Below are positions 198 through 17,836 of a DNA stretch of 64,000 bases, one piece after another. This DNA comes from Candidatus Woesearchaeota archaeon. GTDB lineage: Archaea > Nanobdellota > Nanobdellia > Woesearchaeales > DSVV01. Both the position numbers and the translations under genes were made by a program. Every line of letters begins with the position of its first letter. Position 1 is the first letter of the stretch. Below the pieces are notes generated by a model, which had not been told where the DNA came from, did no database searches, and saw only the letters and a list, made by a program, of their open reading frames with translations. The stretch spans positions 1,297-65,296 of the forward strand of contig JABHXF010000023.1 in assembly GCA_018657385.1 (NCBI GenBank). Direction: 5' to 3'.

Positions 198-3100
198 ATG
201 GGAAAAAAGAGGTTATTCCAATTAGGTGTAATAGTATTAATTTTGTTATTTAGTAGTTCAATTTCTTTTGGTACTAAGTTGGTTCAATCTAGTTCTCCTG
301 CTCTTGGAATTTTTAATGAATTAACAGAAGAATGTAAGGGTACCAACAGGTTATTTTTAGAGATGTTTGTTGGTTGTATAAGATATGATAATGAAGAAGG
401 TTATGTTTTGGGAATTCCTTTTTATAATTCAGAATTTTTTACTGATTTGGGTACAGGAAATGTTATTGAAGGAAAAAAACCATTACCCCCCTTAACAGGG
501 ATATGGGCAAATTATCCCAATACTTTTGCCAAAGAACCAACATTATCTATACCATATTATGACAACCCTAGTAATATAAGAAAAGCAAGAATGTATGAGG
601 CATATAGTAAGGTGTTACCTGATGGAACAACCTTTAATGGTGCTTGTAGATTATTTGCTTATTATAAACATGATTATTGCAATGATGAGGTTGTTTTTCA
701 TGAAGAAATTATAAAAGAAGATAAAACTTTTTTTTGTTCACAACCTCAACCAAAAGATACTTTTCCATGGCCAGAAGAACAATATGGTTTTGGTGAACCT
801 GTTTCAAGAGCATTAAGTTTAAAAAATCAATATCTTTATTCAGTTGATTGGGATAATGTTCCAAGTGATTGTAATAATTTAAAAGGTACTTCTAATGGTA
901 ATTCTTGTTGTGGTGACGATTATATGTGGATAATGAATAGTGTACATAACATAGATGAGACAGTAGACAAGAATATTGATGATTGGTGTTTATATAGTTA
1001 CATTGATGAAGATGAAGAAGCATTGTTTGACTTTCATGAAGATCAGTTTGGTTTTGAAGATGCAGCAGTTGGTCCACATCCATATCGGAATGGAGTTTAT
1101 TGTACTCCTCTAAGATCTATTGCTGCCGCTGGTGATATACAAGAGATTCATTATGCATATGATTCTAAATTATTACTTTATTCTCCAGATTCTGATGCTG
1201 AAGAGGACAGATTATTTAGGTATTATTATGATGATCCTGGAACAACAACAGATGTTGGATTATGGGAAGAACCAAATCTAAACCCTCGTTATTGTCATCA
1301 TTATTTTTTAGAAGGAACAGGAGATATTTTTGAATGGACAAACTCTAAACAAGCTGGAGAGATCCATTATTTTGATGTTAAGGATGATTCAAACAATGAT
1401 GGTATCTCATCATCAAACATTCCCAAGAAAGTTGACAATGATAAGAAATTTGTTTTAAATCCAAAAGCACCAGATTATATCTATGATGTCATGACTAAAA
1501 CTGATCATTTTCCTAAACTTAATGAGTATGATTCTGATGGTGATGGTATTGATTCAGATGATCTTAATATTTGTAATTTATTTTTAGATGGTGAATGGAC
1601 TGGCCATCATTGTTGTGGAAATAAGTTTGATGCTGGTGAAAATAAACAAGAAAGTTTTAATGATCCTTATGAAAATGGTAAACATTATTTCCTGGATAAA
1701 TCAGATCTTCAAGAATATGAATTTGAAATAAAAGAAGATAATCTTAAACCAAATAAAGCATGTTACAAAGGTGAGACAGCTAGTGGTGGTGAGATTGTTA
1801 ATGATCCTTATGATCCTATCTATTTTAAATCTGATAATTTAGGTAATTTTAATTGTGGTTATTTGAATGAAGGTGATATTTTAATGGGTATTTTTAATGG
1901 TGTTTCTTTGGGTGATCTTAATTTAGATGTTAAAACTTGTTGTAATATTAAATATCCTAATTTTAAGTTAAACCCAAAACAAGTTGGTACCACAGAAAAG
2001 AATGGTTTTGACTGGGATCTTTATGATTGTGGGCATGTTGCATCTTTGTTAAATGAAAAAGGTACATTAAAATATTGTGTTGATGAAGAAAGAAGGAAGG
2101 AAGAATTAATTCTCGGTAAAACTATTGATTTAGATCATATTGGTTTAAAATATACATATGATGCTCTCCAAGTTTCTACTGATTATTTATTATTTGGTTC
2201 TGTTAATGATGCACCACATCCTTTAGCATTAAAATTAAATATTGGTGACAATGGAATAAATGATAATGTTTATAACAAATGTGAATCAACATATCTAACA
2301 AAAGATTATCACATGCTAGAAGATGATTATGAAGACAACGACGTATTCTATTATTGTCATACAAATAATTCCTGGTTATCAATACCTATTTCAGACCAAC
2401 AATTAAGTAAAGGAACTAGTTCAGCACCAACACCTTTTGGTATGCTAGGAAGAATACCTCAAGAAGGAGATAAATTATATGAGGTAGATGAACCCAAAGA
2501 GATTGGTTTTGCTCATGCTAAATCTTCAGGTTGTTGTTTTGAAAATGAATGTTGGACAGGAAAAAAATGTGTTCCAAATGGTTATATTTTTGAAGACGTG
2601 GATGTAACACACACATGTAGTTATGGTGATTGGGGTGTAGGGGATCCTTCTTATAATTGGTATGATGAACAATTTGATGGAGACACTAGTGTTGCTATAG
2701 GTGTTCAATATTGTACAGATAAGTGGAGTTGTGCATGTCCTAAGGATGATAAATATTCTGCCATAACATCAGAAGAAGATGGCTGGACAATTGATGAATG
2801 TGAAAAATATACAACTCCAGGTAAATGGTGTACAAGATTCCCTTGGACATATGTTGGAGATAGATTCTGTGAAGTAACAGATCAAACAAATATAGTTGAT
2901 GCTGACACTTATGAAGAGGCAGCATGGACTACAAGAACAAAATATTTAGCAACTGCAATGTTAGATATTCCTACAACTGATAACTATGTTTTACATTGTG
3001 ATGATCCTGGAAATATATTTAATTTTTATCCACAAGCTAGCAAGTATTGGGATGAATATATTAAAGATGGGATGTTTTCAGAAAATTATAATTATGATAT

Positions 3101-4271
3101 TATGAATAATTTCTGTGTTTTATTAATTAATCCTGGAGATAATGAAGAAGTTTATGTTGGAACAACTCTTAATCCTTTATTGGATTATAGTTCAGTAACT
3201 CAAAGTCTTTATAGTGATGAATCAGAAGAAAACATAGATACAGAATGTTTTGATGATAATGGTGAAGAAGATTATTGTACTGCAACATTTGGCGATGTGG
3301 ATGCAGGTCCAACATTTGTTTGTTACAGGCCATTAGTTAGTAGTGCAGGACAATGTAAACTAAAACCTGGAAGTCAGGAAGCATGTGATGATTATTATGG
3401 TGGCTTAAATATGGGTGAACATACTTGGGAGGCTGATGATATTAATGATCCAGATACATTTGGTGTTTGTATTCCAAAGGGTCCTGATTTTATGGAAATG
3501 TTAAATGTTACTGAATACATGACTCAGATTTTGTATGGTGAAGATGATAAAAAAGGTTTAGTTAATAGTCCTTATTTATTTAATCAAGACCAAGGGGCAG
3601 ATCCAGACTTTTGTGATGAAACAGCAGAACTAACTAATTTCGCATCTAATACTGATTTTTTAATGTTTAAACAATGTGATGAAACTAATATTGCCTATAA
3701 TGACGTGGCAAAAGCAATAATCTTTACAAAAAAGGCTGGCATAGTTAATCCAATAACCTTAACTTACCAACAAGTTCATAATTCAAAATTAACAACTTAT
3801 GCAGATGAATTTAAACAATTTGTAGTGGATAATGCAGTAGAAATTCAAGATTGGGGAGAAAATATTGATTTAATGAAATCTATTAGTGACTTTGATAGGA
3901 TCTATTATTATCAAGACGCTAGTAGAAAAATATTTGGTATGTTAGAAAGAAAATCAAACCCATTACTTAGTCCATCAAGTAATGATTATGCAAATAAACT
4001 TGAATATTTTTATGCAATTAAATATGAAGGATTTGATAATCTATTCTATAATTATGATACAACTTTAGGTGAGAAAAAATGTTCTATTGTAAAAGATGAA
4101 TATGCACCATTTAAAGACATTGGTTGTTTCAGAGAAGATGCTTTATTGTTCCCAAATAATTATTTCTTAATCTCTCCACCAATGGAAAATTATTATTCAG
4201 ACAATAATGGTAATCCATACATATCAGAGTTCTGGTTTGATTTAACTGCAAAGTTAAGAGTAATAAAATGA
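198..4271 (+). CDS. Giant exported, acidic, cysteine-rich surface protein (1357 aa); no family recognised
   Basis: Uninterrupted 4.07-kb ORF. The N-terminus MGKKRLFQLGVIVLILLFSSSISFG looks like a Sec-type signal. The body is rich in D/E/N/Y/C, with vicinal-Cys motifs (SCCGDD, HHCCGNK, SGCCFENEC). The stop overlaps the next start (ATGA at 4268-4271). Confidence 0.8.
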   Translation: MGKKRLFQLGVIVLILLFSSSISFGTKLVQSSSPALGIFNELTEECKGTNRLFLEMFVGCIRYDNEEGYVLGIPFYNSEFFTDLGTGNVIEGKKPLPPLTGIWANYPNTFAKEPTLSIPYYDNPSNIRKARMYEAYSKVLPDGTTFNGACRLFAYYKHDYCNDEVVFHEEIIKEDKTFFCSQPQPKDTFPWPEEQYGFGEPVSRALSLKNQYLYSVDWDNVPSDCNNLKGTSNGNSCCGDDYMWIMNSVHNIDETVDKNIDDWCLYSYIDEDEEALFDFHEDQFGFEDAAVGPHPYRNGVYCTPLRSIAAAGDIQEIHYAYDSKLLLYSPDSDAEEDRLFRYYYDDPGTTTDVGLWEEPNLNPRYCHHYFLEGTGDIFEWTNSKQAGEIHYFDVKDDSNNDGISSSNIPKKVDNDKKFVLNPKAPDYIYDVMTKTDHFPKLNEYDSDGDGIDSDDLNICNLFLDGEWTGHHCCGNKFDAGENKQESFNDPYENGKHYFLDKSDLQEYEFEIKEDNLKPNKACYKGETASGGEIVNDPYDPIYFKSDNLGNFNCGYLNEGDILMGIFNGVSLGDLNLDVKTCCNIKYPNFKLNPKQVGTTEKNGFDWDLYDCGHVASLLNEKGTLKYCVDEERRKEELILGKTIDLDHIGLKYTYDALQVSTDYLLFGSVNDAPHPLALKLNIGDNGINDNVYNKCESTYLTKDYHMLEDDYEDNDVFYYCHTNNSWLSIPISDQQLSKGTSSAPTPFGMLGRIPQEGDKLYEVDEPKEIGFAHAKSSGCCFENECWTGKKCVPNGYIFEDVDVTHTCSYGDWGVGDPSYNWYDEQFDGDTSVAIGVQYCTDKWSCACPKDDKYSAITSEEDGWTIDECEKYTTPGKWCTRFPWTYVGDRFCEVTDQTNIVDADTYEEAAWTTRTKYLATAMLDIPTTDNYVLHCDDPGNIFNFYPQASKYWDEYIKDGMFSENYNYDIMNNFCVLLINPGDNEEVYVGTTLNPLLDYSSVTQSLYSDESEENIDTECFDDNGEEDYCTATFGDVDAGPTFVCYRPLVSSAGQCKLKPGSQEACDDYYGGLNMGEHTWEADDINDPDTFGVCIPKGPDFMEMLNVTEYMTQILYGEDDKKGLVNSPYLFNQDQGADPDFCDETAELTNFASNTDFLMFKQCDETNIAYNDVAKAIIFTKKAGIVNPITLTYQQVHNSKLTTYADEFKQFVVDNAVEIQDWGENIDLMKSISDFDRIYYYQDASRKIFGMLERKSNPLLSPSSNDYANKLEYFYAIKYEGFDNLFYNYDTTLGEKKCSIVKDEYAPFKDIGCFREDALLFPNNYFLISPPMENYYSDNNGNPYISEFWFDLTAKLRVIK

Positions 4272-6730
4272 AAACTAAGAAATCACAAATGGCTATTTTC
4301 ATGATTCTAGGTATAACAATTGTTATGTTAATTGGATTAGCAATGTATGGTGCAAGCAATGCTGATTCTGGGCATTTATCAACAAAACAAAAACAAATGG
4401 AAGAATTATTTATTGGCAAGGGGAAGTATACAACTTATATTCAAAGTTGTTTAGATCAAGCAACAAAAAATGCATTATACTTAGTTGGACAACAAGGTGG
4501 TGCAATTTATTCTGATTCTAACTTCGACGATGCAACACCAATTCCAGGAGGAACAAAGGCTATTGATTATCATGAAACAGATGATGGGTTAAGAATCTAT
4601 TATGGTTTAACTGCACCTCCAATACCAACAAAAACAGAAAATAAAATGTTAAAGTATCCATTTACAAATACTCTTCCTTCAGAACCATTTCTTAGTCCAG
4701 ATTCAAGTGTTTATGGTGATTCAACCCCATTTTTTGAAAATTTTCCAAATCCTTTAATTTCTTTATGTGATTATCATGGTCCTAATTCTTTAGATGGTGA
4801 AAATATTGAATGTGGTACTGGTCCTTATAGGTATGACAGCACTTTATTAACAGACCATAATAGTGTTCAAGAATATTTACAATATTACATTACACAAAAA
4901 ACAGATGAATGTATTAAATTAGAAGCTCTTCCCGAATTACAAGGTTTTGATATTGAAAAAGAAAATATTGATGTAAAAGTTACAATGGCTGCATCTACAA
5001 TAACTTCAAAATTAAGTATGAATCTTTCTATTACAGATAATCAAACTCTACCTAAAATAGAAATAAGTGATATTACTATTGAGAAGAATGTAAGATTATT
5101 AGAGATGTTTCAAATATTACAAGATATAATTCTTGAAGATTCTAGAAATATTTTCTATGACATTAAAGGCACGGATATTTGTGGTGTTTCTTCACAAGGT
5201 CCTTGCTTAAAAGCAAACATGGTTATTGAAAAAGAACAAGTTAGTCAAGGGGATGATTGGATTATAAAAATAACAGACACAGAATCTTTGTTAGATGGGA
5301 AAGAATTTACTTACCAAGTTGTTTTTGAAAACAGATATCCAGCATTAGATTATATTACTCTAGATAATGTTAAACTAAAATCTCAACTTCAAGATTATGA
5401 TGCTGTTGCAGTACAAGGCATGACTTTAATTTTAGATCCTTATGGTTATGATCCTGATGAAGATTTTCATGTGGCTGAAGGATACATGGGTGAAGGTTAT
5501 ACTTATGAATTTGTTGGTGGGTATACAGAGTATTCACCTGGTGTTAATTCTGCATGCTTATCTGGAAATGCAAATTTAAACGTATTAGTAAGTAAACTAA
5601 ATTCAAATTCTTGCAGGAAACCATCCTCTCCCCCATTTACAACAGGTAAAAAAGTTGAATGGGTCTTGGGAAAAAAAGATGCAGGTGAACATATAATTAA
5701 TGTGAAAATTTGTGATATGTTAAATCAATGTGATGAACAAGAATTAAAAATTTTAGTTGTTCCTTTACTGATTTTTGATGGGGTTCCACAACCAGGGATT
5801 ATGCCAAGTAAATATTTATATAATTCACACAAACTTGCTGGTAGTTTTATCTATGAAACAGACCCTGGAGATACAATTACTTTAGGTATTAATAATGCAA
5901 TTCCTGTTTCTTATGTTCCAACTAGTGGCCCTATTGTACTTAACAATCCTTCTCCTGTAACAGATTTGTTAGAATATGCTAATCAACAATACCAAATTAA
6001 GCAACAGCTTGGAGATGTTGATGGAAAAAGCTTTACAACTATAATTACAAATCCTGACACAGGAGTTATAATTTATTATGATGAAAATGGTCAACCAATT
6101 GCTTATTCTATCGATGATGATGAACCTATCTTGTTTCCACCAGTTACTGAACAAACAGATGAAGAAATAAGTTATTATAATCTAGCAGAAGCATTAAAAC
6201 CAGGTGTTAATGTTTATCAACAACAAGAAGCAATTGAATTAATAGAAGAAGAAGAACAAGAAACAACACAACCATTACAAGACAAACCATTGGTTGTAGT
6301 TGTTGACGGAAATGTAAATCATGGTGAACATGAAATATATTTTATTGAAAATAATAATCCTGAATATCCTCAAATTTATTTAGTTACTCCTAATTATGAT
6401 GATATCAACTTACAAAATAAAGTTCCAATGGATGATCCTATAAGAAAAATGATTGGAGACGATGATGGGAAAGCTGATGCTCTTCCAGTAAAAATGGCAA
6501 TCTTTGGTACTGGTAGTGGTTGTAAAAATAATATTTGCATTTATCATTTTAATAATAATGAATGCTCACAACATGGATCTTATTATAAAAACTATTGTTT
6601 AAAAAGTAATGGTTGTTATTATGGTTTTAGTATAAATATTAATGAAGAAGGTGATGGGCATAGCATAGAACCTGCATCAATGAAAGAAGATTCTTGTTCA
6701 GAATGCACATCAAATGGGTGTATGAATTAA
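4268..6730 (+). CDS. Large prepilin-like (class III signal-like N-terminus) exported protein, 820 aa, Cys-rich C-terminus
   Basis: The N-terminus MKTKKSQMAIFMILGITIVMLIGLAMYG has a K-S-Q motif followed by a ~22-aa hydrophobic helix. The start is coupled to the upstream ORF by ATGA. A central Ig/PKD-like stretch is present (DPDEDFH...GEHIINVKICD). The C-terminal 90 aa are Cys-rich. Confidence 0.75.
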   Translation: MKTKKSQMAIFMILGITIVMLIGLAMYGASNADSGHLSTKQKQMEELFIGKGKYTTYIQSCLDQATKNALYLVGQQGGAIYSDSNFDDATPIPGGTKAIDYHETDDGLRIYYGLTAPPIPTKTENKMLKYPFTNTLPSEPFLSPDSSVYGDSTPFFENFPNPLISLCDYHGPNSLDGENIECGTGPYRYDSTLLTDHNSVQEYLQYYITQKTDECIKLEALPELQGFDIEKENIDVKVTMAASTITSKLSMNLSITDNQTLPKIEISDITIEKNVRLLEMFQILQDIILEDSRNIFYDIKGTDICGVSSQGPCLKANMVIEKEQVSQGDDWIIKITDTESLLDGKEFTYQVVFENRYPALDYITLDNVKLKSQLQDYDAVAVQGMTLILDPYGYDPDEDFHVAEGYMGEGYTYEFVGGYTEYSPGVNSACLSGNANLNVLVSKLNSNSCRKPSSPPFTTGKKVEWVLGKKDAGEHIINVKICDMLNQCDEQELKILVVPLLIFDGVPQPGIMPSKYLYNSHKLAGSFIYETDPGDTITLGINNAIPVSYVPTSGPIVLNNPSPVTDLLEYANQQYQIKQQLGDVDGKSFTTIITNPDTGVIIYYDENGQPIAYSIDDDEPILFPPVTEQTDEEISYYNLAEALKPGVNVYQQQEAIELIEEEEQETTQPLQDKPLVVVVDGNVNHGEHEIYFIENNNPEYPQIYLVTPNYDDINLQNKVPMDDPIRKMIGDDDGKADALPVKMAIFGTGSGCKNNICIYHFNNNECSQHGSYYKNYCLKSNGCYYGFSININEEGDGHSIEPASMKEDSCSECTSNGCMN

Positions 6731-6816
6731 TCTAATTATTTTTAATAACCACTATTAAATAGATATAATAGTTAGTAAAATATATAAATCAATTTAATAA
6801 ATATACTATTATTACT

Positions 6817-9800
6817 ATGAAATTTAAAAAAGGGTTGATATTAATAGTATTAGTTTTAGCTATTTTAATTCCTTTTTCTTTGGCTGAACAATGTTATATT
6901 CCTAGTGCTAAGACTTGTGAAACAATTGATGAAGATTTTACTCTTGAAATGTGTGAAAATACTGTTGAAGATGGTGGTGCTGAAGGAAAAATTGCAGTTG
7001 ATGAATGTGATACTGGTTGTTGTTGTGAATTTCATCAATTAGATGATAGTTATACTGCTTCTACAGGATATTTTAAAGAAACCTGTACTGAAATTTCTAA
7101 TAATTTATTTTTTAAGGATATTCCATGGGTTACGTTATGTGAACAACAATGTCAAGAGCTAACTGATATTTTACAAGCAGAGGGTGGCTTACCAGCATGT
7201 ATGGATAGTATTGATAATGATGAAGATGGTTTAATTGATATGGCTGATATAGATTGTTTAAGCAAAGAAGATACATCTGAACATCCTTCTGCAGAAGATA
7301 CTGAATGTAGCAACACAGTTGATGAAGATGGTGATGGGTTATTAGATTATTTTGGATTATATGAAGACGGTGGTAGCTATTCTGATTATTTGGATGCTGG
7401 AATTTTACCTGATCCATGTTGTACAAAAGAGTTTGGTGTTTCTGAACTTTGTGATTTTCCTGAATGTGATGTTGGTAATAATACTGAATTATGTACTTGT
7501 GGTGGGAATGTTTGTGGTTTCCCATGGCAAATAGAGGGTAATGAAGATTATGATTATGAAAATAAAAAAGATCTAGATCCATATAGTAAATATGTAACTG
7601 GTTCATATTGTTGTAATGGTCAATGTAGTTTTACACCTTGTGGAGATTGTATAGAAGGCCAAGAAACATTTAAAAAAACAGCAGAAGGTTTAGAAACATA
7701 TACTTGTGAATGTGATAGTGATGGTGTTTGCGCATATGGTGAACCTGTTATTACAAAGTTAGGGTTTCCTGAATATTGTATTGATTCTTTAGGTTTTGAT
7801 GGTTATGGTATGGATGAAGACGAGGATAATAAACCAAATTGTTTAGATACTGATTGTTTTGGTGTGTCATGCAGTAATGAACCTTTAAATGTAGAAAACA
7901 AATTTCCTGGTGGTTTAGTTATTCCTCCGAAAACTTGTTCATTTGATAAAAACAAATATCCTGATTATTTTAATCCAATCACAGCTAAGGAAGAACCAAT
8001 TGCATATTATGATGCTAACATAGAAACATGGGTGTGTTGTTTCCCTGACTCAAATAAAAAATCAAGAGTTAAGGATTGTAATGATGATAGTGTTCCTGAT
8101 ACTTGTGGGGAATGTGCATGTTTAAATTCACATAAAGAAGCACAACAATTAACAGTTGATCATGTTCTTGGCAAGCAACAATTAAACATTAGTTATTTCT
8201 TTGCATGTCAACATGAAGATATTAGACTTAAACTAATGAGGTGTGATAATATTCCAGCACAATGTGGTGTTGTTAATGGTGAAGTCCAATTAGAAAATAG
8301 TAATTTATTTACAGATATTAGTGATGGGTTAACATGCGATCTTCTTGATAATGGAATTGTTCAAGAAGACCAAGAAAATTGTCTAACTGAAGATGGTTTA
8401 TTACAACCTGGATTATTAACTGATTTTGTTGGGCTCTTTGATAATAATATACAAACAAAAAAACATTATACTTATATTATGAAATCAATTTATCCAGATG
8501 GTATTGTAAGTTTTTCAGATCCTGTACATATAGAAACAGGGAATAATCAAATTTGTTTTGATAATACTGGACATTTTTGTATTCGAGATGAAGATTTTCA
8601 TGAAGATTCTGCAAAATATAGGTATTATTGTGATGATAATAATGATTTACATGGTGGCCAAGATGCAGATGATGAATATATTTGTAATGATAATGAAGTT
8701 TGTGTTGAATATTTAACTGGTTCAAGTGGTAAAGAAACAACTTGTCAAACAAAAATGCCTTGTATATTCTGTGGTTCGCCATTTAACACATATGGTTTTA
8801 TAGATAATGCAATGATTGATCTTACCACATTCCCTGATGGTTTTATGGAATTAAATAAAGAAGATTTTAATCCTGATTGTACTATCTCAGAATTATGTTA
8901 TTATGATTATACAGATACAATAAAGGATGCTTATGAAGATTGTTCAAGAGTAGATAATTGTTATGATTATAGGTCAGAAGATGCATGTCAGGGTTATGCA
9001 GGCGAACAAAATAATAAATGTTTAACTCATTCATGTACATGGAATGCCACTAAGATGGATCTTATTGATGATCTTGATGATGCTTTAAGTGGATTAGATA
9101 TTAATGTTGGCTATTGTCATGATCCAGATGAAAATGTTAAAAACTGTCAACTATGTAATAAATTATCAAATAATGAAGTATTTGCGTATTGCAGTATTGA
9201 TATGTGTCGTGGGTTTACTACAGATGACACAGATTGTTACTTTAATTCTACAATGGAATGTGATTCTTCTAATCATTTAACCTGTACAAATTATAATCAA
9301 GGTTATCCAGGCAATTTTAATAAAATTAGAACTGATTGTTTAGGTGAATATGAACAACCACTAGTCTTAGATATAATCCATGATCAGAATGATAAACCAA
9401 TTTGGGGAACAAATGCAGTAAAAGTTAAAGGAAATGATCTTCTTGGTTTTGGTGTTTGTGATTTTGATGAAAGCCAACAAAAATGTTTTAAAGATGGTAA
9501 TGATGATAATAAAACAGATCCAAAAGGAAAAAAAGGATCAGATATTACTCCACCTGTAACAGAAGTTATTGCACCTGCTAATTCAGATAAGATTGAATTA
9601 AAATTTGCAATTAATGATCCTATTGTGGATGGGAGATATCATTCTGACCCTGAGGATATTAAAACATATTATTGTTTCCCTAGTGATAATCATATTCCTG
9701 AAGTTATACAAGATGGACTTATGGAAGGTAATTTACCTGGGTATTCAGATTTTGAAAGTTATAATTATGATGGCGATGGATTTTTAACTGAAAAAGAATT

Positions 9801-12800
9801 AGGTGAATGTTATCCTAATAACTTATACAAACCAGATGAAGACCCATTAATTCCAAATGGTAATGGTTATCACAAAGTATTTTACTATTCAATTGATGAA
9901 GCAAAGAATATTGAAGAAGTTAAATCATTTTTATTTAATGTTGATATTAAACCACCTGAAATAACTATCACTCCTTATGTTACTAATGATTTATCAGCCC
10001 CTTATGATGATACACAAATTTTATTTTCAGTTGAATTAGATGAATCAGCAAAAGAATGTTATGATATCTTTGAAGATTATGTTGGTGTTAAAGAAATTAA
10101 TTATGAAGGTGGTCAATATTTCCAAGCTAAATATACAGGACTAAAAGATGCAAGTTATTTATACACTGTTGTTTGTACAGATTTCTTAGACAATACAATT
10201 AATAAATCTATTACTGTAAAAATTGATGCTGATCAGGAAATTCAATCACCTCAGCCAACAGGGGTATTAGATTATAGTCCTGTAAACTTAGAAATTATCA
10301 CATTAAAACAAGGTGATTGTAGGTTTGGCCAATCATCAACATTTGCTTTACTAACTTCATTTGGCGAACCAGAACAAATTAGTACAGGTCCTAGTTTATA
10401 CAAATACACTCATCAACTTTCATTAGAGGAACAAGGGTTACAGAAATATAGAGTTATGTGTCAATTTCCAGGGTTGTCTGGAGAAAGAGAAGATGAAATC
10501 CAATTTGTTCTAGACACAACTCCTCCTACAACTAGATTAACAGATCCAAAAGGTAATGATTTTAATACATCTCAATGGTATTCTGGAGAACATAGCGGAG
10601 ATATGGCTTATTTACAATGTGTAGATGAACCTGAGTTTGGTTTTGGTTGTGATGAATTACAAACACACTATTGTTTACAAAAAGGATCATTGAAATGTCC
10701 AACAAGATTAGAATTCCCTGGTCAAGAAAAAGATACTAGTTATCCATTATATACTCCAGTTAATATTCCTAATATTCCTGATGAACAATGGTTATGTTAT
10801 CATTCTGGAGAATTAACTGATAATAATATGGGTGGTTTAATAGAAGACAAAACTTGTGTTAAATTATTAATGGATTCTTCACAAGGTCCTGATATTAATG
10901 TACCATTATTAAAACAATATACTGATTTAACTAATCCTTTCTTTTATGGTTCTCCTGTGCTTGAACAAGGTATAACTGTTGCATTTTTATTAGAAGGGGA
11001 AGTAATTGATGGTGATGCAGCAACATCTCCTCCAGATAATAAATTAAATATTCAAGTTTATCCTTTATCTGAAGATTATTTAGTTGGTGTTGCATTATTA
11101 ACTGCCTTAACTGAAGAAATTGCACTATTAGAAGAAAACCAAGAATTTGAAATTGGTGATCTTGGTGCATCAGAATTATTTGAAGATATCCCTTCAAACA
11201 ATGCATTTTCTCAGGAAATTAATTTAATGCCTGGTCTGAATAAAATTTTATTAGAAGCAGTTGATAGATCTGGTGAATGGACAAGTAAAGAATATTATAT
11301 TATGGTTAGTCCATTTAATGGTGAGTTATTAGAAATTCTTGAACCACCTAAGGGTGTTTCCAAAGAAAAAGAATTTGATTTAATTGTAAAAACATCAGAT
11401 GATCTGCCACCACCAGAAAAATGTATGTTATCACAGAATAAAAATATAGGTTATAATTATGAAATGGAACAAATTGAACCAAGGAAATTTAAGAACCATT
11501 TTAATTTATCAGGAATGATTAGTGGTATTTATTATACTACTTTTATCAGATGTGATTTCCCTGGTGGTATATCTGATGAAACTTTTGTTGATATAATTTG
11601 GGATAATAGTGCACCTGCTATTGCAAAATTCTTTATTAATCCAAGTGATGGGAAGGAACCACCAGCTGTTGTTGAACCTCCTTTTGTAACAAACTTAACA
11701 GTTGTTACAGACGATAAAACAAGATGTAAATATTCAAAAACACCTGGGACTGATTATTTTTCAATGACCCCGTTTGATGATTATGAAACAAAAAATCTTA
11801 GTTATGTAAATGAACATAAACTAACTAATCTAATTGATGGTCAACAATATACTTATTATGTCAGGTGTGATAATGGTCCAACAGAACCAGCTTCAACTCA
11901 TATTTCTGAAGAATCAGTATTAACATTTATGGTTGATACAACTCAATTTACTGGCTTTGAATTAATTACTCCTGAAAAATTCACTAGCGACACTTCAATA
12001 GACTTTGAATTACATACTACAAAACAAGCAAGTGATTGTACTTTTGGTCCAGAAGAAGAAACAGTAGATCTTTACTTAATGGAAACTGTTGCATCTGGTG
12101 TGGATGCATTTAAAGTCCATTATGGTGGTCCAATCTCATTATTAGAAGGCGAACACACCTTTTATTTTAAATGTCTAACTTTATCAGAAGGCCATGTAAT
12201 GGATAATTACAAATTTTCAATTGATGTAACTCCACCATCACTTGCTATTAAAACAGATCCTTATACTTCTTCATTATCTACATTATCTGCGAGTTGGGAA
12301 GGTGAAGAAGAATATAGTGAAGTTGAAGAATATAATTATTCAATTGGTACTGAACCAGGTCTGGCAAATATTTATGAGTGGGATAATACTGCTGATTTAA
12401 ATGAAAAAGAAAACAATCTTAATCTTTCAAACGAAACAACTTATTATTGGAATGTAATTGCAATGAATTCTGTTGGATTATGGAGTGATATTGTAAGTAG
12501 TAATGGTACTTATGTTGATTCCACCTATAATCCTGGTTATGAAACTTTTGAAGATAATGTAGCAGTTTGCGCTAATAGTATTAAAGACTTAGGAGAAAGC
12601 GATCTTGATTGTGGTGGGAATTGTGGTAGTTGTAGTAATGGTAAAAATTGTGAAGTCAATAATGATTGTGTTAGCAGCCAATGTATTAGTGGGATTTGTG
12701 TCGGATCTTCATGTGATGATGGTATATTAAATCAACAAGAAGCAGATATTGATTGTGGTGGTCCATGTATTAGTTGTGATAATGGTATGGATTGCGATGT

Positions 12801-13497
12801 TAATAGTGATTGTAGCTCTGGATATTGTAATGTGGGGACTTGTCAACAACCAACTTGTGATGATGGTATTAAGAATGGGGTTGAAATTGGTGTTGATTGT
12901 GGTGGAAGTTGTTTAGGTGAATGTGATATTCCAGTTGGTGGGGAAGTAGATGAAGATTGTTATGATGGTATAAAAAATCAAGATGAAGAAGGAATTGATT
13001 GTGGTGGTGCTTGTAGTAATTGTGAAGAAGCACCAGAACCAGTTGAACCTAAGGATGATTCATCATTCTGGTGGGTATGGTTAATTTTATTATTAATTAT
13101 TACAGGTCTTGCAGGTGGAGGGTATTATTATTATCAAAGTGTTTTCCTAAAACACACACCATTGAATAAGACGCAAACAAGAGCACAACAAATTCAACAA
13201 TCTCAAAGAACTCAACAACCACAACAAGTATGGGGTTCTACAAAAAAATCTCAAAGACAAAGAGTAACTTCCTCTATTTCACCAACTAAATCAACTCTAC
13301 AATCAATCTCACAAAGTTTAGGGGCTACATCTAATACTTTTTCTAAACCAAGTTATAGTAAAAGAAGACAACAAAAACAAAACAAAAGAAATGCAATTTT
13401 AAAAGCATTTGATGAAAAACCTAAAAAGAATGAAAGCAAAATCAAATTAAAATTAAAAGATCTGGATGATAAGTCACCAAAGACTAAGAAAAAATAA
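6817..13497 (+). CDS. Giant mosaic surface adhesin-like protein (2226 aa) with C-terminal TM anchor and cytoplasmic Q/S/K-rich tail
   Basis: 6.7-kb ORF with signal MKFKKGLILIVLVLAILIPFSLA. DNDEDG/DEDGDG acidic loops flanked by Cys lie at 7195-7360. Six modules each start with D-x-[TK/SA/TQ]-P/F-type boundaries (DITPP, DIKPP, DTTPP, DNSAP, DTTQF, DVTPP) across ~9540-12540. An FN3-like segment lies at 12271-12520. Four CGG-type Cys repeats lie at 12568-13029. The TM helix FWWVWLILLLIITGLAGGGYYYY lies at 13066-13134, followed by a ~120-aa basic tail. Confidence 0.85.
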   Translation: MKFKKGLILIVLVLAILIPFSLAEQCYIPSAKTCETIDEDFTLEMCENTVEDGGAEGKIAVDECDTGCCCEFHQLDDSYTASTGYFKETCTEISNNLFFKDIPWVTLCEQQCQELTDILQAEGGLPACMDSIDNDEDGLIDMADIDCLSKEDTSEHPSAEDTECSNTVDEDGDGLLDYFGLYEDGGSYSDYLDAGILPDPCCTKEFGVSELCDFPECDVGNNTELCTCGGNVCGFPWQIEGNEDYDYENKKDLDPYSKYVTGSYCCNGQCSFTPCGDCIEGQETFKKTAEGLETYTCECDSDGVCAYGEPVITKLGFPEYCIDSLGFDGYGMDEDEDNKPNCLDTDCFGVSCSNEPLNVENKFPGGLVIPPKTCSFDKNKYPDYFNPITAKEEPIAYYDANIETWVCCFPDSNKKSRVKDCNDDSVPDTCGECACLNSHKEAQQLTVDHVLGKQQLNISYFFACQHEDIRLKLMRCDNIPAQCGVVNGEVQLENSNLFTDISDGLTCDLLDNGIVQEDQENCLTEDGLLQPGLLTDFVGLFDNNIQTKKHYTYIMKSIYPDGIVSFSDPVHIETGNNQICFDNTGHFCIRDEDFHEDSAKYRYYCDDNNDLHGGQDADDEYICNDNEVCVEYLTGSSGKETTCQTKMPCIFCGSPFNTYGFIDNAMIDLTTFPDGFMELNKEDFNPDCTISELCYYDYTDTIKDAYEDCSRVDNCYDYRSEDACQGYAGEQNNKCLTHSCTWNATKMDLIDDLDDALSGLDINVGYCHDPDENVKNCQLCNKLSNNEVFAYCSIDMCRGFTTDDTDCYFNSTMECDSSNHLTCTNYNQGYPGNFNKIRTDCLGEYEQPLVLDIIHDQNDKPIWGTNAVKVKGNDLLGFGVCDFDESQQKCFKDGNDDNKTDPKGKKGSDITPPVTEVIAPANSDKIELKFAINDPIVDGRYHSDPEDIKTYYCFPSDNHIPEVIQDGLMEGNLPGYSDFESYNYDGDGFLTEKELGECYPNNLYKPDEDPLIPNGNGYHKVFYYSIDEAKNIEEVKSFLFNVDIKPPEITITPYVTNDLSAPYDDTQILFSVELDESAKECYDIFEDYVGVKEINYEGGQYFQAKYTGLKDASYLYTVVCTDFLDNTINKSITVKIDADQEIQSPQPTGVLDYSPVNLEIITLKQGDCRFGQSSTFALLTSFGEPEQISTGPSLYKYTHQLSLEEQGLQKYRVMCQFPGLSGEREDEIQFVLDTTPPTTRLTDPKGNDFNTSQWYSGEHSGDMAYLQCVDEPEFGFGCDELQTHYCLQKGSLKCPTRLEFPGQEKDTSYPLYTPVNIPNIPDEQWLCYHSGELTDNNMGGLIEDKTCVKLLMDSSQGPDINVPLLKQYTDLTNPFFYGSPVLEQGITVAFLLEGEVIDGDAATSPPDNKLNIQVYPLSEDYLVGVALLTALTEEIALLEENQEFEIGDLGASELFEDIPSNNAFSQEINLMPGLNKILLEAVDRSGEWTSKEYYIMVSPFNGELLEILEPPKGVSKEKEFDLIVKTSDDLPPPEKCMLSQNKNIGYNYEMEQIEPRKFKNHFNLSGMISGIYYTTFIRCDFPGGISDETFVDIIWDNSAPAIAKFFINPSDGKEPPAVVEPPFVTNLTVVTDDKTRCKYSKTPGTDYFSMTPFDDYETKNLSYVNEHKLTNLIDGQQYTYYVRCDNGPTEPASTHISEESVLTFMVDTTQFTGFELITPEKFTSDTSIDFELHTTKQASDCTFGPEEETVDLYLMETVASGVDAFKVHYGGPISLLEGEHTFYFKCLTLSEGHVMDNYKFSIDVTPPSLAIKTDPYTSSLSTLSASWEGEEEYSEVEEYNYSIGTEPGLANIYEWDNTADLNEKENNLNLSNETTYYWNVIAMNSVGLWSDIVSSNGTYVDSTYNPGYETFEDNVAVCANSIKDLGESDLDCGGNCGSCSNGKNCEVNNDCVSSQCISGICVGSSCDDGILNQQEADIDCGGPCISCDNGMDCDVNSDCSSGYCNVGTCQQPTCDDGIKNGVEIGVDCGGSCLGECDIPVGGEVDEDCYDGIKNQDEEGIDCGGACSNCEEAPEPVEPKDDSSFWWVWLILLLIITGLAGGGYYYYQSVFLKHTPLNKTQTRAQQIQQSQRTQQPQQVWGSTKKSQRQRVTSSISPTKSTLQSISQSLGATSNTFSKPSYSKRRQQKQNKRNAILKAFDEKPKKNESKIKLKLKDLDDKSPKTKKK
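12568..13029 (+). repeat. Four tandem Cys-rich modules, consensus C-[DY]-DG-I-x-N-x-x-E-x-x-[IV]-DCGG-x-C, inside the 2226-aa ORF
   Basis: Read from the translation: ...SDLDCGGNCGSCSNGKNCEVNNDCVSSQCISGICV / CDDGILNQQEADIDCGGPCISCDNGMDCDVNSDCSSGYCNVGTC / CDDGIKNGVEIGVDCGGSCLGEC / CYDGIKNQDEEGIDCGGACSNCE. Confidence 0.8.
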
Positions 13498-13522
13498 TTA
13501 AAATATATAGAAGGTGTAAAAC

Positions 13523-13993
13523 ATGAAATCACAAGTTCAACAAATGTTTTTTTATATTTTGGCATTATTTGTAATTGGAATGATTTTATTATTGGGGATT
13601 AAGTATGTTGGAAAAATAGTAGAACAAATAGAAACAATTGATTTAGTAGAATTTAAGACTAGCTTAATTGATGATTCCGATGTTATGTTATCTAAATATG
13701 GTAGTTGGCAGAAAAAGTCATATACTGTTCCAGAAGGTGTTAAAAAAGTATGTTTTTTCACGATTAATGAAGATCAACACCCCTGTGTTGGAGATTTAGA
13801 TTTTATCATGTGCGATGCATGGAACGACGGGACACAAAATGTCATGACTATTCCTTGGTCAGATACTTCAATAAACCTTACAAAGATGACTGTTGATAGT
13901 ACAAAAGATTATTTGTGTTTTGATGCTATTGACAGAAAAATTACAATTAGGATGACAGGTAAAGGTAATGGTGTTTTAATATCAGTGCCATAA
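13523..13993 (+). CDS. Prepilin-like protein (156 aa), candidate minor pilin
   Basis: The N-terminus is MKSQVQQMFFYILALFVIGMILLLG (K-S-Q followed by a hydrophobic helix). A GGTG Shine-Dalgarno lies 8 nt upstream. The gap to the giant ORF is only 25 nt. Confidence 0.7.
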   Translation: MKSQVQQMFFYILALFVIGMILLLGIKYVGKIVEQIETIDLVEFKTSLIDDSDVMLSKYGSWQKKSYTVPEGVKKVCFFTINEDQHPCVGDLDFIMCDAWNDGTQNVMTIPWSDTSINLTKMTVDSTKDYLCFDAIDRKITIRMTGKGNGVLISVP

Positions 13994-14106
13994 CCTTATT
14001 ATATGTAATTTAATTGTGCTTAATTTAATTATCTCTATTTTTGTCATGCACAATTTAATTATGTATTGTTATTAATATTATTAAGACTAGAAAAACTAAA
14101 TACAAA

Positions 14107-15189
14107 ATGAAGCATTCTAAAAAAGCGGTAATTGAAATGCAATTCAATTGGATATTTATCTTTGTAGTTGGCTCTGTTATTTTATTGTTTTTTGTGTTTA
14201 TTGGTAAATCATACATGGAAAGTTCCAATATGAAACTATCAGGTAAAATCCTATTTGAAATAGATTCAATTATGAAAGGTGCAAGTTCATCTTCAAAATC
14301 ATCATCTGAATTAGAAATACCAAAATTGGAGTTGGGATTTACTTGTTATCCTGAATGTAGTGAAGAAGGTTGTGATTCTGGGTTTGCTATTGGAAACACG
14401 GGAGTAAATAAACCAACTCCTCATGATATTATTTTTGCCCCAAGTGAAATCAAGAGTGATTTTTTATATACATGGACCTTAGATTGGACATCACCATTTA
14501 GAGTTGGAAATTTTCTTTATTTAACAAGTCCATCAATAAGGTATGTATTTGTTTATAATGAGGATTATTCTATGTCTAAAACCATGGCTGAAAAAATATA
14601 TAACTTATTTTTAGATAATGAATTTATTACTGTTGATTTATACAGCGAAGAAGAATTAATGGATGACTTTGAAGCCACTAATCATAAACATGTAAGATTT
14701 GTTTTCTTTTATACATTTGAAGATGATCTTGACTTAGATATTGGCAAATCTGATTTTGATTTAGTTATTTTTAGTGATCCTAATCCAAACTTTAATGGTC
14801 ATGTATTGTTTTTAAGTGAAGATATGGCTGCAGAAACAGGTGATTTTGATGATTCTGTTGGTTATTTTGGAAAAGAATCAATGGTCGGTGCAATTTTTTC
14901 AGAAAATCAAGATTTTTTCGTTTGTAATATGCATAAGGCATTTAATAGTTTAGAAAGAATATTTGGGATTTATAAGATAAAAGCCCTTTACTTAAAGACT
15001 CAAGCAGGTGCATGCGGTGGCATTTATGAAAATTTTGCTGCCTTTCCTCTTCCTGAAAATTTTCAATATCCAAGTAGTTTTGAAGAAGGTGATTATGAGA
15101 AAATATCTAGTTTATTAAAATCTATGTCATCATCAGCAGAAAAAGCAAACAAAAATGCAATATTTAACTCATGTCCTAGACTTTATTAA
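14107..15189 (+). CDS. Prepilin-like protein (360 aa), candidate minor pilin
   Basis: The N-terminus is MKHSKKAVIEMQFNWIFIFVVGSVILLFFVFIG (K-A-V-I-E followed by a hydrophobic helix). It is co-directional with the rest of the cluster. Confidence 0.65.
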   Translation: MKHSKKAVIEMQFNWIFIFVVGSVILLFFVFIGKSYMESSNMKLSGKILFEIDSIMKGASSSSKSSSELEIPKLELGFTCYPECSEEGCDSGFAIGNTGVNKPTPHDIIFAPSEIKSDFLYTWTLDWTSPFRVGNFLYLTSPSIRYVFVYNEDYSMSKTMAEKIYNLFLDNEFITVDLYSEEELMDDFEATNHKHVRFVFFYTFEDDLDLDIGKSDFDLVIFSDPNPNFNGHVLFLSEDMAAETGDFDDSVGYFGKESMVGAIFSENQDFFVCNMHKAFNSLERIFGIYKIKALYLKTQAGACGGIYENFAAFPLPENFQYPSSFEEGDYEKISSLLKSMSSSAEKANKNAIFNSCPRLY

Positions 15190-15229
15190 CTAATTAAATT
15201 ATATCACTCAAGAAAATAATACAAGAAAA

Positions 15230-15748
15230 ATGAAAAAAACAAAATCACAATTAAAAATAGGCGAATCAATAATGGTTTTAATTATTTTTTTCATTATTTT
15301 AATGGTTGGTTTAGTTTTTTATGCTAAAGTTCAAAGTCATATTGCGATTAAGGATGCAGAGGAATTTAATGCAAAAAGAACAATTGATATGGCATTATCA
15401 GTTAAGTTTATGCCTGAACTACAATGTACTGTACAATCAACAGAACAATTTGATTGTATTGATTTATTAAAAATAAATGCTTTTAAAGCAATTATGCTAA
15501 ACACTGAAAAACAAAGTTATAGAAGATATTATGCAAGGATGTTTCCCAATGCAAAAATTACTATCAAACAATCTTTTGTTCCATTTGGAGAAGGTATTGA
15601 AGGTGGAGAAATAATGTTATTTGATAATACATATGTTGATGAGGTAAATGCATCAGGTGTAATAAAAATGTCCATACCTGTAACTATTTTTGATCCAATT
15701 AGGGATTCAAACAGCTTTGGATTTATTGTACTTGATACTTATAGTTAA
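15230..15748 (+). CDS. Prepilin-like protein (172 aa), candidate minor pilin
   Basis: The N-terminus is MKKTKSQLKIGESIMVLIIFFIILMVGLVFYA. The gap to the previous ORF is 40 nt. Confidence 0.65.
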   Translation: MKKTKSQLKIGESIMVLIIFFIILMVGLVFYAKVQSHIAIKDAEEFNAKRTIDMALSVKFMPELQCTVQSTEQFDCIDLLKINAFKAIMLNTEKQSYRRYYARMFPNAKITIKQSFVPFGEGIEGGEIMLFDNTYVDEVNASGVIKMSIPVTIFDPIRDSNSFGFIVLDTYS

Positions 15749-15806
15749 TATTAATCTCCTAATCAATAATATACCAAACTTAATATATTAAACAAGAAAA
15801 TTAAAA

Positions 15807-16406
15807 ATGAATACAACAACAAAAGCACAAACAGAAATCATGGGGTTAATGATTATTGTAGTTATTATTACATTAATTATTTTGTTTGTTATTTCTGTTG
15901 TTTATTTTAAACCAGTAGACGATCCTTTAAACAGCTTTATCCAGAAAGATCTTTCAACAGGTATAATCAGTGCTATGTTAAAAACAGATTCAGGATGTAC
16001 AAAAGATACCACACTAGAAGATTTGTTTATAGACATTACTAAAACTCCACTTGGTACAATTCAATGTACTTCTGAATTAACTAATGTTTTAAGTGCAAGA
16101 TATCCAGATAATGAATTTTGTCAAGATATTATTATGAGCCGAGGTGCTCTAGAGTGTGGTGTTTCTCAAATCTTGTATACTTTACAAATAGACATTAATC
16201 GGCCATATCATTTTAAGGTCAAAAGTAATGATAATAAATTTCTAGAAACAGATGGTCTTATTCCTTTTCCACCAAGTAAATATTTAGAAGAAGAATTTTC
16301 AAGGGCAACAAGTGTTGATGTTACTCCATATTCATTACCTCTTTATCCTAGTATCGATGTTTTAGAAATTTGGTTGTGTATAGGTGGTGAATGTCCAAAT
16401 ATTTAA
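15807..16406 (+). CDS. Prepilin-like protein (199 aa), candidate minor pilin
   Basis: The N-terminus MNTTTKAQTEIMGLMIIVVIITLIILFVISVVYF carries K-A-Q-T-E. This resembles the K-G-Q-x-S-x-E start of euryarchaeal DUF361-type pilins. Confidence 0.7.
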   Translation: MNTTTKAQTEIMGLMIIVVIITLIILFVISVVYFKPVDDPLNSFIQKDLSTGIISAMLKTDSGCTKDTTLEDLFIDITKTPLGTIQCTSELTNVLSARYPDNEFCQDIIMSRGALECGVSQILYTLQIDINRPYHFKVKSNDNKFLETDGLIPFPPSKYLEEEFSRATSVDVTPYSLPLYPSIDVLEIWLCIGGECPNI

Positions 16407-16560
16407 TATTTGTTTTAATTAAGACTTGTTTTAATTAAAATGGTTATTTAAGTTAAAGTATACATAATATTTATATATAAGGATGGTAATAATAAGGATA
16501 TAACATGGATTATTATAATATTTAATAAACATAAATAAACATAACAAATGAGGTGAAAAA

Positions 16561-16839
16561 ATGTTTAAAAAAGGAGATATATCACTTAATATGATTATTA
16601 TTGCAATAATTGCATTATTGGTGTTAGTTATTATTGCAGCTGTATTTACAGGTAGATTAGCAATGTTTAATGTTGGGATATCTGATTGTAATTCAATTAA
16701 AAATGCACAATGTATTTTTGAATGTGGTGATGGTTTTGTGGCACATCCAACAGGTAAATGTTTAGATGATGGAAAGAAAGTTCCAGATGTAAAATGTTGT
16801 ATTCCTGTGGATTATTCAGAAATAGATGAATATTCTTGA
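16561..16839 (+). CDS. Small prepilin-like protein (92 aa, six Cys), candidate major pilin
   Basis: The N-terminus is MFKKGDISLNMIIIAIIALLVLVIIAAVFTG (K-G-D followed by a hydrophobic helix). A strong SD (GAGGTGA) lies 6 nt upstream. It has its own AT-rich upstream region with TATA-like ATTTATATATA (~16470) and a T-rich tract right after the stop. The short globular part has 6 Cys, including VKCCIPV. Confidence 0.7.
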   Translation: MFKKGDISLNMIIIAIIALLVLVIIAAVFTGRLAMFNVGISDCNSIKNAQCIFECGDGFVAHPTGKCLDDGKKVPDVKCCIPVDYSEIDEYS

Positions 16840-16948: not shown

Positions 16949-17836
16949 ATGAAAAGAAAAGTAATCACACTTTCTGATACTACATTTGTTATAACCTTAC
17001 CATTAGACTGGATAAGAAAATATGATATTAAAAAAGGTGATTATATTGATTTAAGTCAAATTAATGATGATTTATTGGTTAGTGTTGACTCAATACCATT
17101 AAAAAAGAATATTAAGATTGATATCTCTAATTTAACAGAACGTGTGATTAGGTGGCAATTATCAGCATTGCATAAATCAGGTTATGACCATATTGAAATT
17201 TTATATGCTAACAAAGATCAGGAAAAACTCATATATGAATTAATGAAGAATTTGTTTACTGGTTTTAACATTCTTTCTGAAACAGCTAATTGTTTAATAT
17301 TAAGATCAATTGCTAAAGAAGATAAGCAGGAATTTGATGCTGCTTTGAGAAGAGCATTTAGAATCACTTTGTTAATGGGTAATGAATTACTTGATTGTTT
17401 TAAAAAAAGAGAAATTAATGAACATATTAAAGAAAAAGAATTAATTAATAACCAATTAACTAATTTTTGTCAAAGATTAATAAATAAACATAATTATGGT
17501 GGCAATAAAGCTACCTTTCTTTATGCAATTATTTGGAATTTAGAAAAAGTATGTGATAACTATAAATATATTTTTGATACTATCAATACAATTGAAGATC
17601 TAATTGAACCAAATATATTAGAGGTATTTGAATTAATTAATGAATATTTAAATGATTATTACAACTTATTTTATGAATTTGAATTAACAAAGTTAAATAA
17701 AATTAATCAAAAACAAAATCTCATCAAAGAAAAGATTAAAAATATTCAGAAAAAAGATGAAATATTAAATCATTTGCAGGTATTAATGACTCAGATTACA
17801 GATTTTTCAGCTTCAATAATTGCCTTGAATAGTTGA
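16949..17836 (+). CDS. AbrB/SpoVT-domain plus PhoU-like regulator (archaeal phosphate-uptake-regulator-type architecture)
   Basis: The N-terminus KRKVITLSDTTFVITLPLDWIRKYDIKKGDYIDL is typical of the AbrB/SpoVT swapped-hairpin fold. The rest is helical and PhoU-like (ALRRAFRITLLMGNELLD...). Confidence 0.55.
   Translation: MKRKVITLSDTTFVITLPLDWIRKYDIKKGDYIDLSQINDDLLVSVDSIPLKKNIKIDISNLTERVIRWQLSALHKSGYDHIEILYANKDQEKLIYELMKNLFTGFNILSETANCLILRSIAKEDKQEFDAALRRAFRITLLMGNELLDCFKKREINEHIKEKELINNQLTNFCQRLINKHNYGGNKATFLYAIIWNLEKVCDNYKYIFDTINTIEDLIEPNILEVFELINEYLNDYYNLFYEFELTKLNKINQKQNLIKEKIKNIQKKDEILNHLQVLMTQITDFSASIIALNS

Follow-up and report, generated by a model that had tools for sequence, protein, structure and literature searches.

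A recurrent woesearchaeotal gene module of prepilin-like proteins and Cys-rich surface giants as a candidate type IV filament locus

Woesearchaeota are among the most widespread uncultivated archaeal groups, and their hosts and contact mechanisms are unknown. The locus described here, at 198–16839 of a 64,000-nucleotide (nt) stretch of DNA from Candidatus Woesearchaeota archaeon (contig JABHXF010000023.1; hereafter the window, whose numbering is used throughout), raises the question of what structure could be built from eight adjacent genes that combine prepilin-like starts with exported giant proteins. The proteins are labelled W1 to W8 in gene order, and a neighbour is labelled W9. The answer that we favour, and consider somewhat probable, is a set of type IV filament subunits, with W4 to W7 as a minor or initiating complex, W8 as the bulk subunit, W2 as a modular pilin and W3 as a cell-anchored adhesin, the motor and peptidase being encoded elsewhere.

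Recurrent gene order and prepilin-like N-termini

Open reading frame (ORF) calling on the window placed eight co-directional ORFs on the plus strand, with the tight junctions that an earlier interpretation of the DNA letters (the sequence-only reading) had described. W1 (198–4271; 1357 amino acids, aa) and W2 (4268–6730; 820 aa) overlap in an ATGA at 4268 and appear to be translationally coupled. W3 (6817–13497; 2226 aa) is separated by 25 nt from W4 (13523–13993; 156 aa), with a GGTG Shine-Dalgarno sequence 7–10 nt upstream of 13523, and is followed by W5 (14107–15189; 360 aa), W6 (15230–15748; 172 aa), W7 (15807–16406; 199 aa) and W8 (16561–16839; 92 aa). The remaining intergenic gaps are 86, 113, 40, 58 and 154 nt, and a GAGGTGA stands ahead of W8, past the 154-nt gap. 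The 113-nt gap between W4 and W5 holds an inverted repeat (14001–14019 and 14048–14066; 19-nt arms, 84% complementary, 28 nt apart), which may be an attenuator, a terminator or a regulator site within the operon.

The anchor family of the module is W5, for which a word-indexed search found 39 homologues and which is represented in 281 GTDB species genomes. An exhaustive HMMER search gave 2178 clusters (50% identity) at E ≤ 1e-3, 1139 of them at E ≤ 1e-30, and nearly all of the 150 W5 matches listed span the whole protein. Named relatives of the locus proteins all belong to metagenome-assembled genomes (MAGs) of Woesearchaeota or Nanoarchaeota (DPANN), and relatives of W1 to W8 are labelled hypothetical in public records. 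Eighty species loci were retrieved with 10-kb flanks and the window proteins were mapped onto them, many of the loci being cut by contig ends. The order W1-like, W2, W3, W4, W5, W6, W7, W8(n) recurs across about 80 species, which settles in favour of the sequence-only reading a point on which it had depended, namely whether the eight genes co-occur in relatives. W5 was found in all 80 loci, W6 in 74, W7 in 71, W3 in 66, W4 in 54, W8 in 50 and W2 in 21. Within these loci W4 always lies between W3 and W5, W2 lies upstream of W3, W3 often occurs as two paralogues, and W8 is present in 1–5 copies. In distant relatives the gene directly upstream of W2 belongs to a family whose profile the C-terminal ~500 aa of W1 match (E = 3e-24), so that each of the eight genes has a positional counterpart. 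Chance or mis-called ORFs are ruled out by this deep conservation.

Six of the eight products (W2 and W4 to W8) begin with a short basic stretch, K-K/R-[G/A/S], usually followed by Q and then by about 20 hydrophobic residues, which at the level of sequence is the architecture of archaeal class III (prepilin) signals. Written with a slash before the +1 residue, the starts are KTKKS/QMAIFMILG in W2, MKS/QVQQMFFYIL in W4, HSKKA/VIEMQFNWIF in W5, KKTKS/QLKIGESIMVL in W6, TTTKA/QTEIMGLMII in W7 and MFKKG/DISLNMIII in W8, so that Q occupies +1 in W2, W4, W6 and W7, V in W5 and D in W8. A class-III-like rule ([KR][GAS] within 40 residues, then an uncharged 18-residue hydrophobic stretch within 9 residues) flags 6/8 ORFs of the locus and 2/56 other non-nested ORFs of the window (Fisher p = 1e-5). 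Of the two outside the locus, one is a lipoprotein and counts as a false positive; the second, at 39852–41534 on the minus strand, encodes a 560-aa protein with the start SRKKA/QSAAGAAGLIALIAVF and a Cys-rich C-terminal half; it has no Pfam match and lies among housekeeping genes far from the operon.

The shared start of W2 and the five downstream ORFs, which the sequence-only reading had pointed out, was recovered as quoted there, and the motif is kept in 93–99% of the members of each family, with G, A or S always at −1. The relatives that fit it number 12 of 12 scorable for W2, 53/55 for W4, 71/75 for W6, 72/73 for W7 and 104/112 for W8. The consensus N-termini are KK[ASG]Q..GQ.F.YIL in W4, KK[GA]xIExQFNWIF in W5, KK[AS]Q[IL]KMGET in W6 (Q 99% and E 95% conserved), [KR][KR][SAG]QxEIxGL in W7 and KK[AG]QGLSLN in W8. 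Among the motif-fitting relatives, Q stands at +1 in 69/71 of W6, 63/72 of W7, 41/53 of W4 and 54/104 of W8; in the W7 family profile, a tally separate from this count, Q8, E10 and G13 are invariant. Profile-profile comparison (hhalign) found the families alike only over their first 30–58 residues. The six prepilin-like products form six unrelated families that share only this N-terminal segment, common ancestry of the small proteins is rejected, and the motif is under strong purifying selection in every family.

Gln at +1 had been noted as typical of substrates of the prepilin peptidase EppA, and in Methanococcus maripaludis EppA cannot process prepilins without it (PMC4390842). The conserved starts are most simply read as the mark of a sequence-specific processing step, because an invariant small residue followed by Gln in unrelated families goes beyond what a positive-inside anchor by itself would account for. 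The same argument weighs against the proposal that these are ordinary uncleaved signal-anchor (type II) membrane proteins, in which K-K-small-Q would be merely a positive-inside topogenic signal unrelated to type IV filaments. Such a topology needs neither an invariant small −1 residue nor up to 99–100% Gln (together with Glu or Gly) across unrelated families, and we consider the proposal quite unlikely; the results that would favour it are taken up with the assembly machinery below.

Public records of W5 and W7 begin at an internal Met, giving 319 instead of 360 aa and 185 instead of 199 aa. The shortened starts lack the basic leader and cut into the hydrophobic helix, although homologues keep the longer N-terminus. 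Because these gene calls start 3' of the motif, automated signal-peptide surveys would miss W5 and W7.

Surface giants and the predicted W5 structure

The three giants are, as had been claimed, acidic, Cys-rich and equipped with export signals. Asp and Glu make up 17.5, 14.5 and 17.7% of W1, W2 and W3, respectively, and Lys and Arg make up 8.0, 6.7 and 6.9%, with 45, 18 and 112 Cys residues. W1 and W3 have ordinary Sec-type signals (e.g., FSLA/EQ), and among the giants only W2 has the prepilin-like start. W1, with the N-terminus MGKKRLFQLGVIVLILLFSSSISFG, is predicted to be secreted and has no Pfam match; one member of the W1-like family carries a Laminin_G_3/ConA-like lectin domain. W2, the candidate modular pilin, consists of a conserved ~500-aa core with many invariant residues among 13 homologues and a variable C-terminus. 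Its AlphaFold2 model (predicted local distance difference test score, pLDDT, 65.5) has an N-terminal helix at residues 4–50 followed by beta-rich domains, for which Foldseek returned weak, generic matches to tandem Ig/cadherin-like adhesin and S-layer domains. Because the model is of low confidence, W2 is assigned no function.

W3 contains acidic Ca-binding-like repeats and Cys-rich CGGxC modules, with weak EF-hand and acidic double-disulfide repeat matches. A transmembrane (TM) helix near residue 2084 is followed by a tail of about 120 aa rich in K, R, Q and S, which runs to residue 2226. The N-termini of the W3 family are of the Sec type, and in 52/66 relatives the W3-family proteins beside W4/W5 have a C-terminal TM helix and a tail of 120–300 aa with 40–80 Lys/Arg. 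From the Sec signal, the C-terminal TM helix and the basic tail, W3 is read as a cell-anchored type I membrane protein of the producer. The giants had been proposed as tip or shaft adhesins; this does not hold for W3, whose C-terminal membrane anchor rules out a free pilus-tip adhesin, and W1 too is Sec-exported. No PilY1/PilC beta-propeller was matched by Pfam in W1 to W3. The W3-family tails are unusually long, with 20–30% Lys/Arg after the TM helix, and might serve at the contact site to hold nucleic acid, ribosomes or a partner from the cytoskeleton.

Neither Pfam nor NCBIfam has a model that covers the W5 family. Its invariant residues are W15, G22 and four Cys, and an AlphaFold2 model built from 39 sequences (pLDDT 89.3; predicted template modelling score, pTM, 0.85) predicts a continuous helix of 55 residues (5–59, pLDDT 89), then a beta-rich (alpha/beta) domain and a C-terminal helical domain. 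Type IV pilins typically have an N-terminal helix of about this length, roughly double what is needed to cross a membrane, and its prediction in W5 argues against the signal-anchor proposal. For W8, Pfam searches on 40 family members gave one Arch_flagellin match and one Flp1_like match, both below threshold, and its six-Cys head gave defensin-like Pfam matches that were likewise sub-threshold only. The suggestion that W8 is the major pilin gains from its small size and from the 1–5 copies that relatives carry, both of which would suit a major subunit.

The filament reading and known type IV systems

In the favoured filament reading, the leaders would be cut by an EppA/FlaK-type peptidase, and a FlaI/FlaJ-type ATPase and platform, with genes at some other site in the genome, would then polymerise the hydrophobic helices. 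W4 to W7 (156, 360, 172 and 199 aa), which are single-copy and fixed in order, would form a low-abundance initiating or tip complex, and the Cys-knob protein W8, multi-copy in relatives, would be the bulk subunit. W2 would show Ig-like adhesive domains on the filament as a modular pilin, and W3, kept in the membrane of the archaeon itself by the C-terminal helix and the basic tail in the cytoplasm, would act as a cell-body adhesin or envelope component beside the filament base. Such an organelle would attach to bacterial cells and, in lineages with adjacent murein hydrolases (see below), might also breach their walls locally.

The closest archaeal comparison is the Epd pilus of M. maripaludis (type IV filament, TFF, system 1), in which the major pilin EpdE and the minor pilins EpdA–D are processed by EppA. 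Both have a short basic leader, a small −1 residue and Gln at +1 (W2, W4, W6 and W7 in the window), the Epd pilus needs several distinct minor pilins besides a small major pilin, as is proposed for the module, and some of its pilin genes lie away from the machinery, as those of the module would; system 1 is reported in DPANN. On the other hand, the sequence likeness is limited to the N-terminal motif, with no match to a curated pilin model, and the Epd cluster holds its own ATPase, two platform genes and peptidase, whereas the module lacks these in the window and in all 80 loci. A further difference from Epd is that genes for giant Cys-rich surface proteins and, in relatives, for murein hydrolases adjoin the module.

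The module also resembles the bacterial minor-pilin sets of type IVa pili (FimU-PilVWX-PilY1-PilE), of the type II secretion system (T2SS; GspH-I-J-K) and of ComGD-G. These share with it four low-copy pilin-like genes in fixed order, one much larger member (W5, cf. GspK), and the adjoining genes for a large non-pilin adhesin and a small major-type subunit. A conserved Glu near the mature N-terminus occurs in W5, W6 and W7 as in the bacterial sets, but at +3 or +6 instead of +5. There is, however, no sequence or fold match and no PilY1 beta-propeller, and W3 is anchored in the producer's membrane. The parallel with fimU-pilVWXY1E drawn in the sequence-only reading is therefore one of organisation and an analogy only, because neither homology nor a fold match ties the mid-size proteins to FimU/PilVWX or GspHIJK, or the giants to PilY1. 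Its proposal of four mid-size prepilins as a priming complex may still apply, the genes being single-copy and fixed in order, but not by homology to FimU/PilVWX/GspHIJK.

The resemblance to GspH–K bears on a further proposal, a T2SS-like pseudopilus in which W4 to W8 would act as a piston exporting W1, W3 and, in relatives, hydrolases across the envelope. Five pilin-like genes beside large exported proteins do resemble GspG–K beside their substrates (PMC8179133), with W5 as the large member like GspK, but a single-membrane archaeon has no need of second-step secretion, the Sec signals of W1 and W3 suffice for export, and there is no fold or sequence similarity to GspH–K. A GspK-like fold for W5 in particular is unsupported, as a Foldseek search with the confident model found no match. 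Moreover, because the hydrolases carry the pilin-like N-terminus, they would be subunits and not cargo. We regard this piston as highly improbable; both it and the signal anchors are hard to square with the pattern of conservation and with a cell plan of one membrane.

The part proposed for W2 has a precedent in bacterial modular pilins, in which lectin, vWA or peptidase modules are established (PMC8179133); in Streptococcus sanguinis, PilB carries a vWA module and PilC a ConA-like lectin module. W2 shares with these a pilin-type N-terminus followed by large beta-rich modules, and the amidase and SLT proteins of relatives share the combination of a pilin-type N-terminus with a catalytic domain, that is, a design in which a functional module is grafted on a pilin. 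The module differs from the bacterial modular pilins in having an archaeal-type leader and a pilin module that is unrecognised by any model.

Several results weigh against the filament reading. Pfam and NCBIfam searches, the kind of check by which the prepilin assignment was to be judged, gave nothing above threshold for any of the eight proteins, with no match at E ≤ 1 to pilin or archaellin models. Structure prediction yielded a confident model for W5 alone among the eight, and a Foldseek search of the PDB with this model returned nothing at E < 0.02, with neither a pilin nor GspK in its list; the W5 head domain is therefore either new or too diverged. PDB profile searches with the W6, W7 and W8 families likewise returned nothing significant. 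Leader cleavage and polymerisation are wholly our inference, and, with regard to a bacterial target, the window's own lineage has no adjacent murein hydrolases. The main weakness of the filament model is the machinery for the source genome. Neither an ATPase nor a platform nor a peptidase was found within 10 kb on either side of the window, nor within 10 kb of the module in the 80 relatives, where recurrent-family clustering and motif scans were the only means of search, and T4P (type IV pilus) systems have been said to be missing from DPANN genomes (bioRxiv 10.1101/2020.05.14.094862).

Within the window itself, Pfam searches on 30 proteins, precomputed Pfam annotation and six-frame motif scans revealed neither a T2SS-E-type ATPase nor a platform nor an A24 peptidase, in agreement with the sequence-only reading, which had reported no machinery in the 64 kb. 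Motif scans for Walker-A (G..G[SAT]GK[TS]T) and for G.GD.K across the 80 loci and the window with its flanks gave one unrelated match each. The lack of a pilin hidden Markov model match, the lack of local machinery and the claim that T4P are missing in DPANN would also favour uncleaved signal anchors. On the other hand, archaeal pilin genes often lie outside T4P operons, and the census that reported this did not identify the cognate pilins of nanoarchaeal ATPases (PMC4858521); because of this dispersal, the absence of local machinery is no argument against pilins. Most Woesearchaeota MAGs are reported to encode flaI, flaJ and flaK (PMC11606122, PMC5994134), which speaks against the signal-anchor proposal, and DPANN are assigned TFF system 1 and subsystem 4A in a 2026 preprint (bioRxiv 10.64898/2026.04.22.720090).

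Murein hydrolases in relatives and contact with bacteria

The co-directional operon runs on past W8 in about 20 of the 80 loci, with the order C6-C6-x-W8-x-C8-C9-C10-C12-C11, where C numbers denote recurrent families. The extended operon occurs, for example, in loci L014, L021, L026, L047, L050, L054, L073 and L086, about 1–10 kb downstream of the W7 homologue. All of the extension families (C6 and C8–C12) have K-K/R-[GA]-hydrophobic starts. Members of C9 carry Amidase_3 (best E = 4e-19) and members of C11 carry SLT (best E = 1e-29), and other members of these two families have Peptidase_M15/VanY, NlpC/P60, M23 or phage-lysozyme domains. This linkage was absent from the sequence-only reading. 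Because the operon continues into murein hydrolases, the probable task of the organelle is to attach to bacteria and, in those lineages, to breach the bacterial wall locally. In the literature searched, no description was found of this module or of class-III-type murein hydrolases in archaea.

When the profiles of C6–C12 and C17 were compared with the window, no homologues were found beyond N-terminal similarity. About 6 kb downstream of the locus, at 22678–25980 (+), the window encodes an 1100-aa SLT protein with a cytoplasmic N-terminus and several TM helices, which probably belongs to the large SLT proteins of Woesearchaeota and Pacearchaeota. Two reports propose that such large SLT proteins mediate contact with bacteria (PMC8204110, PMC9723730). 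Three ORFs with lipoprotein-like signals (ending in SC) follow the SLT gene at 26020–27057, 27107–28045 and 28257–29192 (+), and a fourth ORF with such a signal lies at 20673–21434 (+). "Module 98" of Castelle et al. (2021; PMC8204110) comes from the same lineages and comprises mostly hypothetical surface proteins, some with murein-degrading domains. The families are listed there as unknown, and in the available part of that paper the prepilin-like N-termini and the W1–W8 gene order are not described.

The hydrolases also bear on how long the structure would be. The locus might encode a membrane-retained surface complex, either a short pseudopilus or a raft like the bindosome (Bas) of Sulfolobus, which would organise W3 and, in relatives, the murein hydrolases and would form no long pili; the class-III-type N-termini, processed or merely inserted, would hold the proteins in the membrane. 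The sharing of the N-terminus by so many large and diverse proteins (W2, C6, C8–C12, the amidase and SLT proteins) suits a display system better than a simple pilus; W3, too, is anchored in the membrane, and machinery is co-encoded in 0/80 loci. Substrate-binding proteins with class III signal peptides, which were first recognised in Sulfolobales, provide a precedent (bioRxiv 10.64898/2026.04.22.720090). The relatives' loci resemble the bindosome in having functional proteins with class III-like starts (Amidase_3, SLT, M15 and NlpC/P60), and in the window such proteins are limited to W2 and the ORF at 39852–41534. The bindosome, however, has a dedicated BasE/BasF-type ATPase and membrane protein, and none was found in any module locus. 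Against a raft, a small multi-copy W8 with four single-copy partners in fixed order matches the classic composition of polymerising filaments that have minor pilins. The bindosome too needs a TFF ATPase and platform, and because of this dependence the membrane-retained complex differs from the filament in the length of the structure and not in kind. We consider such a complex, the chief alternative to the filament, possible, if somewhat doubtful.

Returning to the filament, a wider interpretation is a lineage-specific, type IV filament-derived organelle of Woesearchaeota and related Nanoarchaeota. The pilin-type N-terminus would serve as a universal mounting peg, four core proteins and the Cys-knob subunit would build a filament or stalk, and giant adhesins and peptidoglycan-cutting enzymes would be mounted on it, the whole being used to grapple and open bacterial cells. 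This we put forward tentatively and regard as unlikely in its full extent. If it were true, these DPANN archaea would live as episymbionts or predators on bacteria and not on other archaea, and the long-missing cognate pilins of DPANN secretion ATPases would be identified. The module would supply pilin families for DPANN, where the census found no cognate pilins for the nanoarchaeal ATPases examined (PMC4858521), and in relatives the linkage to murein hydrolases with the same N-terminus is independent evidence that some of these archaea target bacteria. With its anchor family in at least 281 species genomes, the module offers a concrete and conserved candidate contact apparatus that is amenable to experiment. 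The principle of pilin-like subunits and modular pilins is already known, and what is new here are the module and its families without a curated model.

The G+C content is 25–32% across the whole window, and its housekeeping genes are archaeal, including those for RFC, FEN1, PAN, PheRS and a TrmB-family regulator as well as SecY and ribosomal proteins. A mobile or viral island is ruled out by the uniform composition and by flanks of housekeeping genes (MCM, TBP, aIF2-beta and FEN1). Identical DNA is present on a 135.8-kb JGI metagenome contig and on several ENA contigs. Directly downstream of W8, W9 (16949–17836, +) encodes a cytoplasmic protein of 295 aa with no Pfam match, and its homologues adjoin the module or sit near it in 10 related loci, on either strand; W9 may be a regulator, and its membership in the module is uncertain. 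Upstream, the MCM helicase gene (1997–5389 of L001, about 4.6–8 kb before the window start) contains, according to precomputed Pfam annotation, an intein with a LAGLIDADG endonuclease domain.

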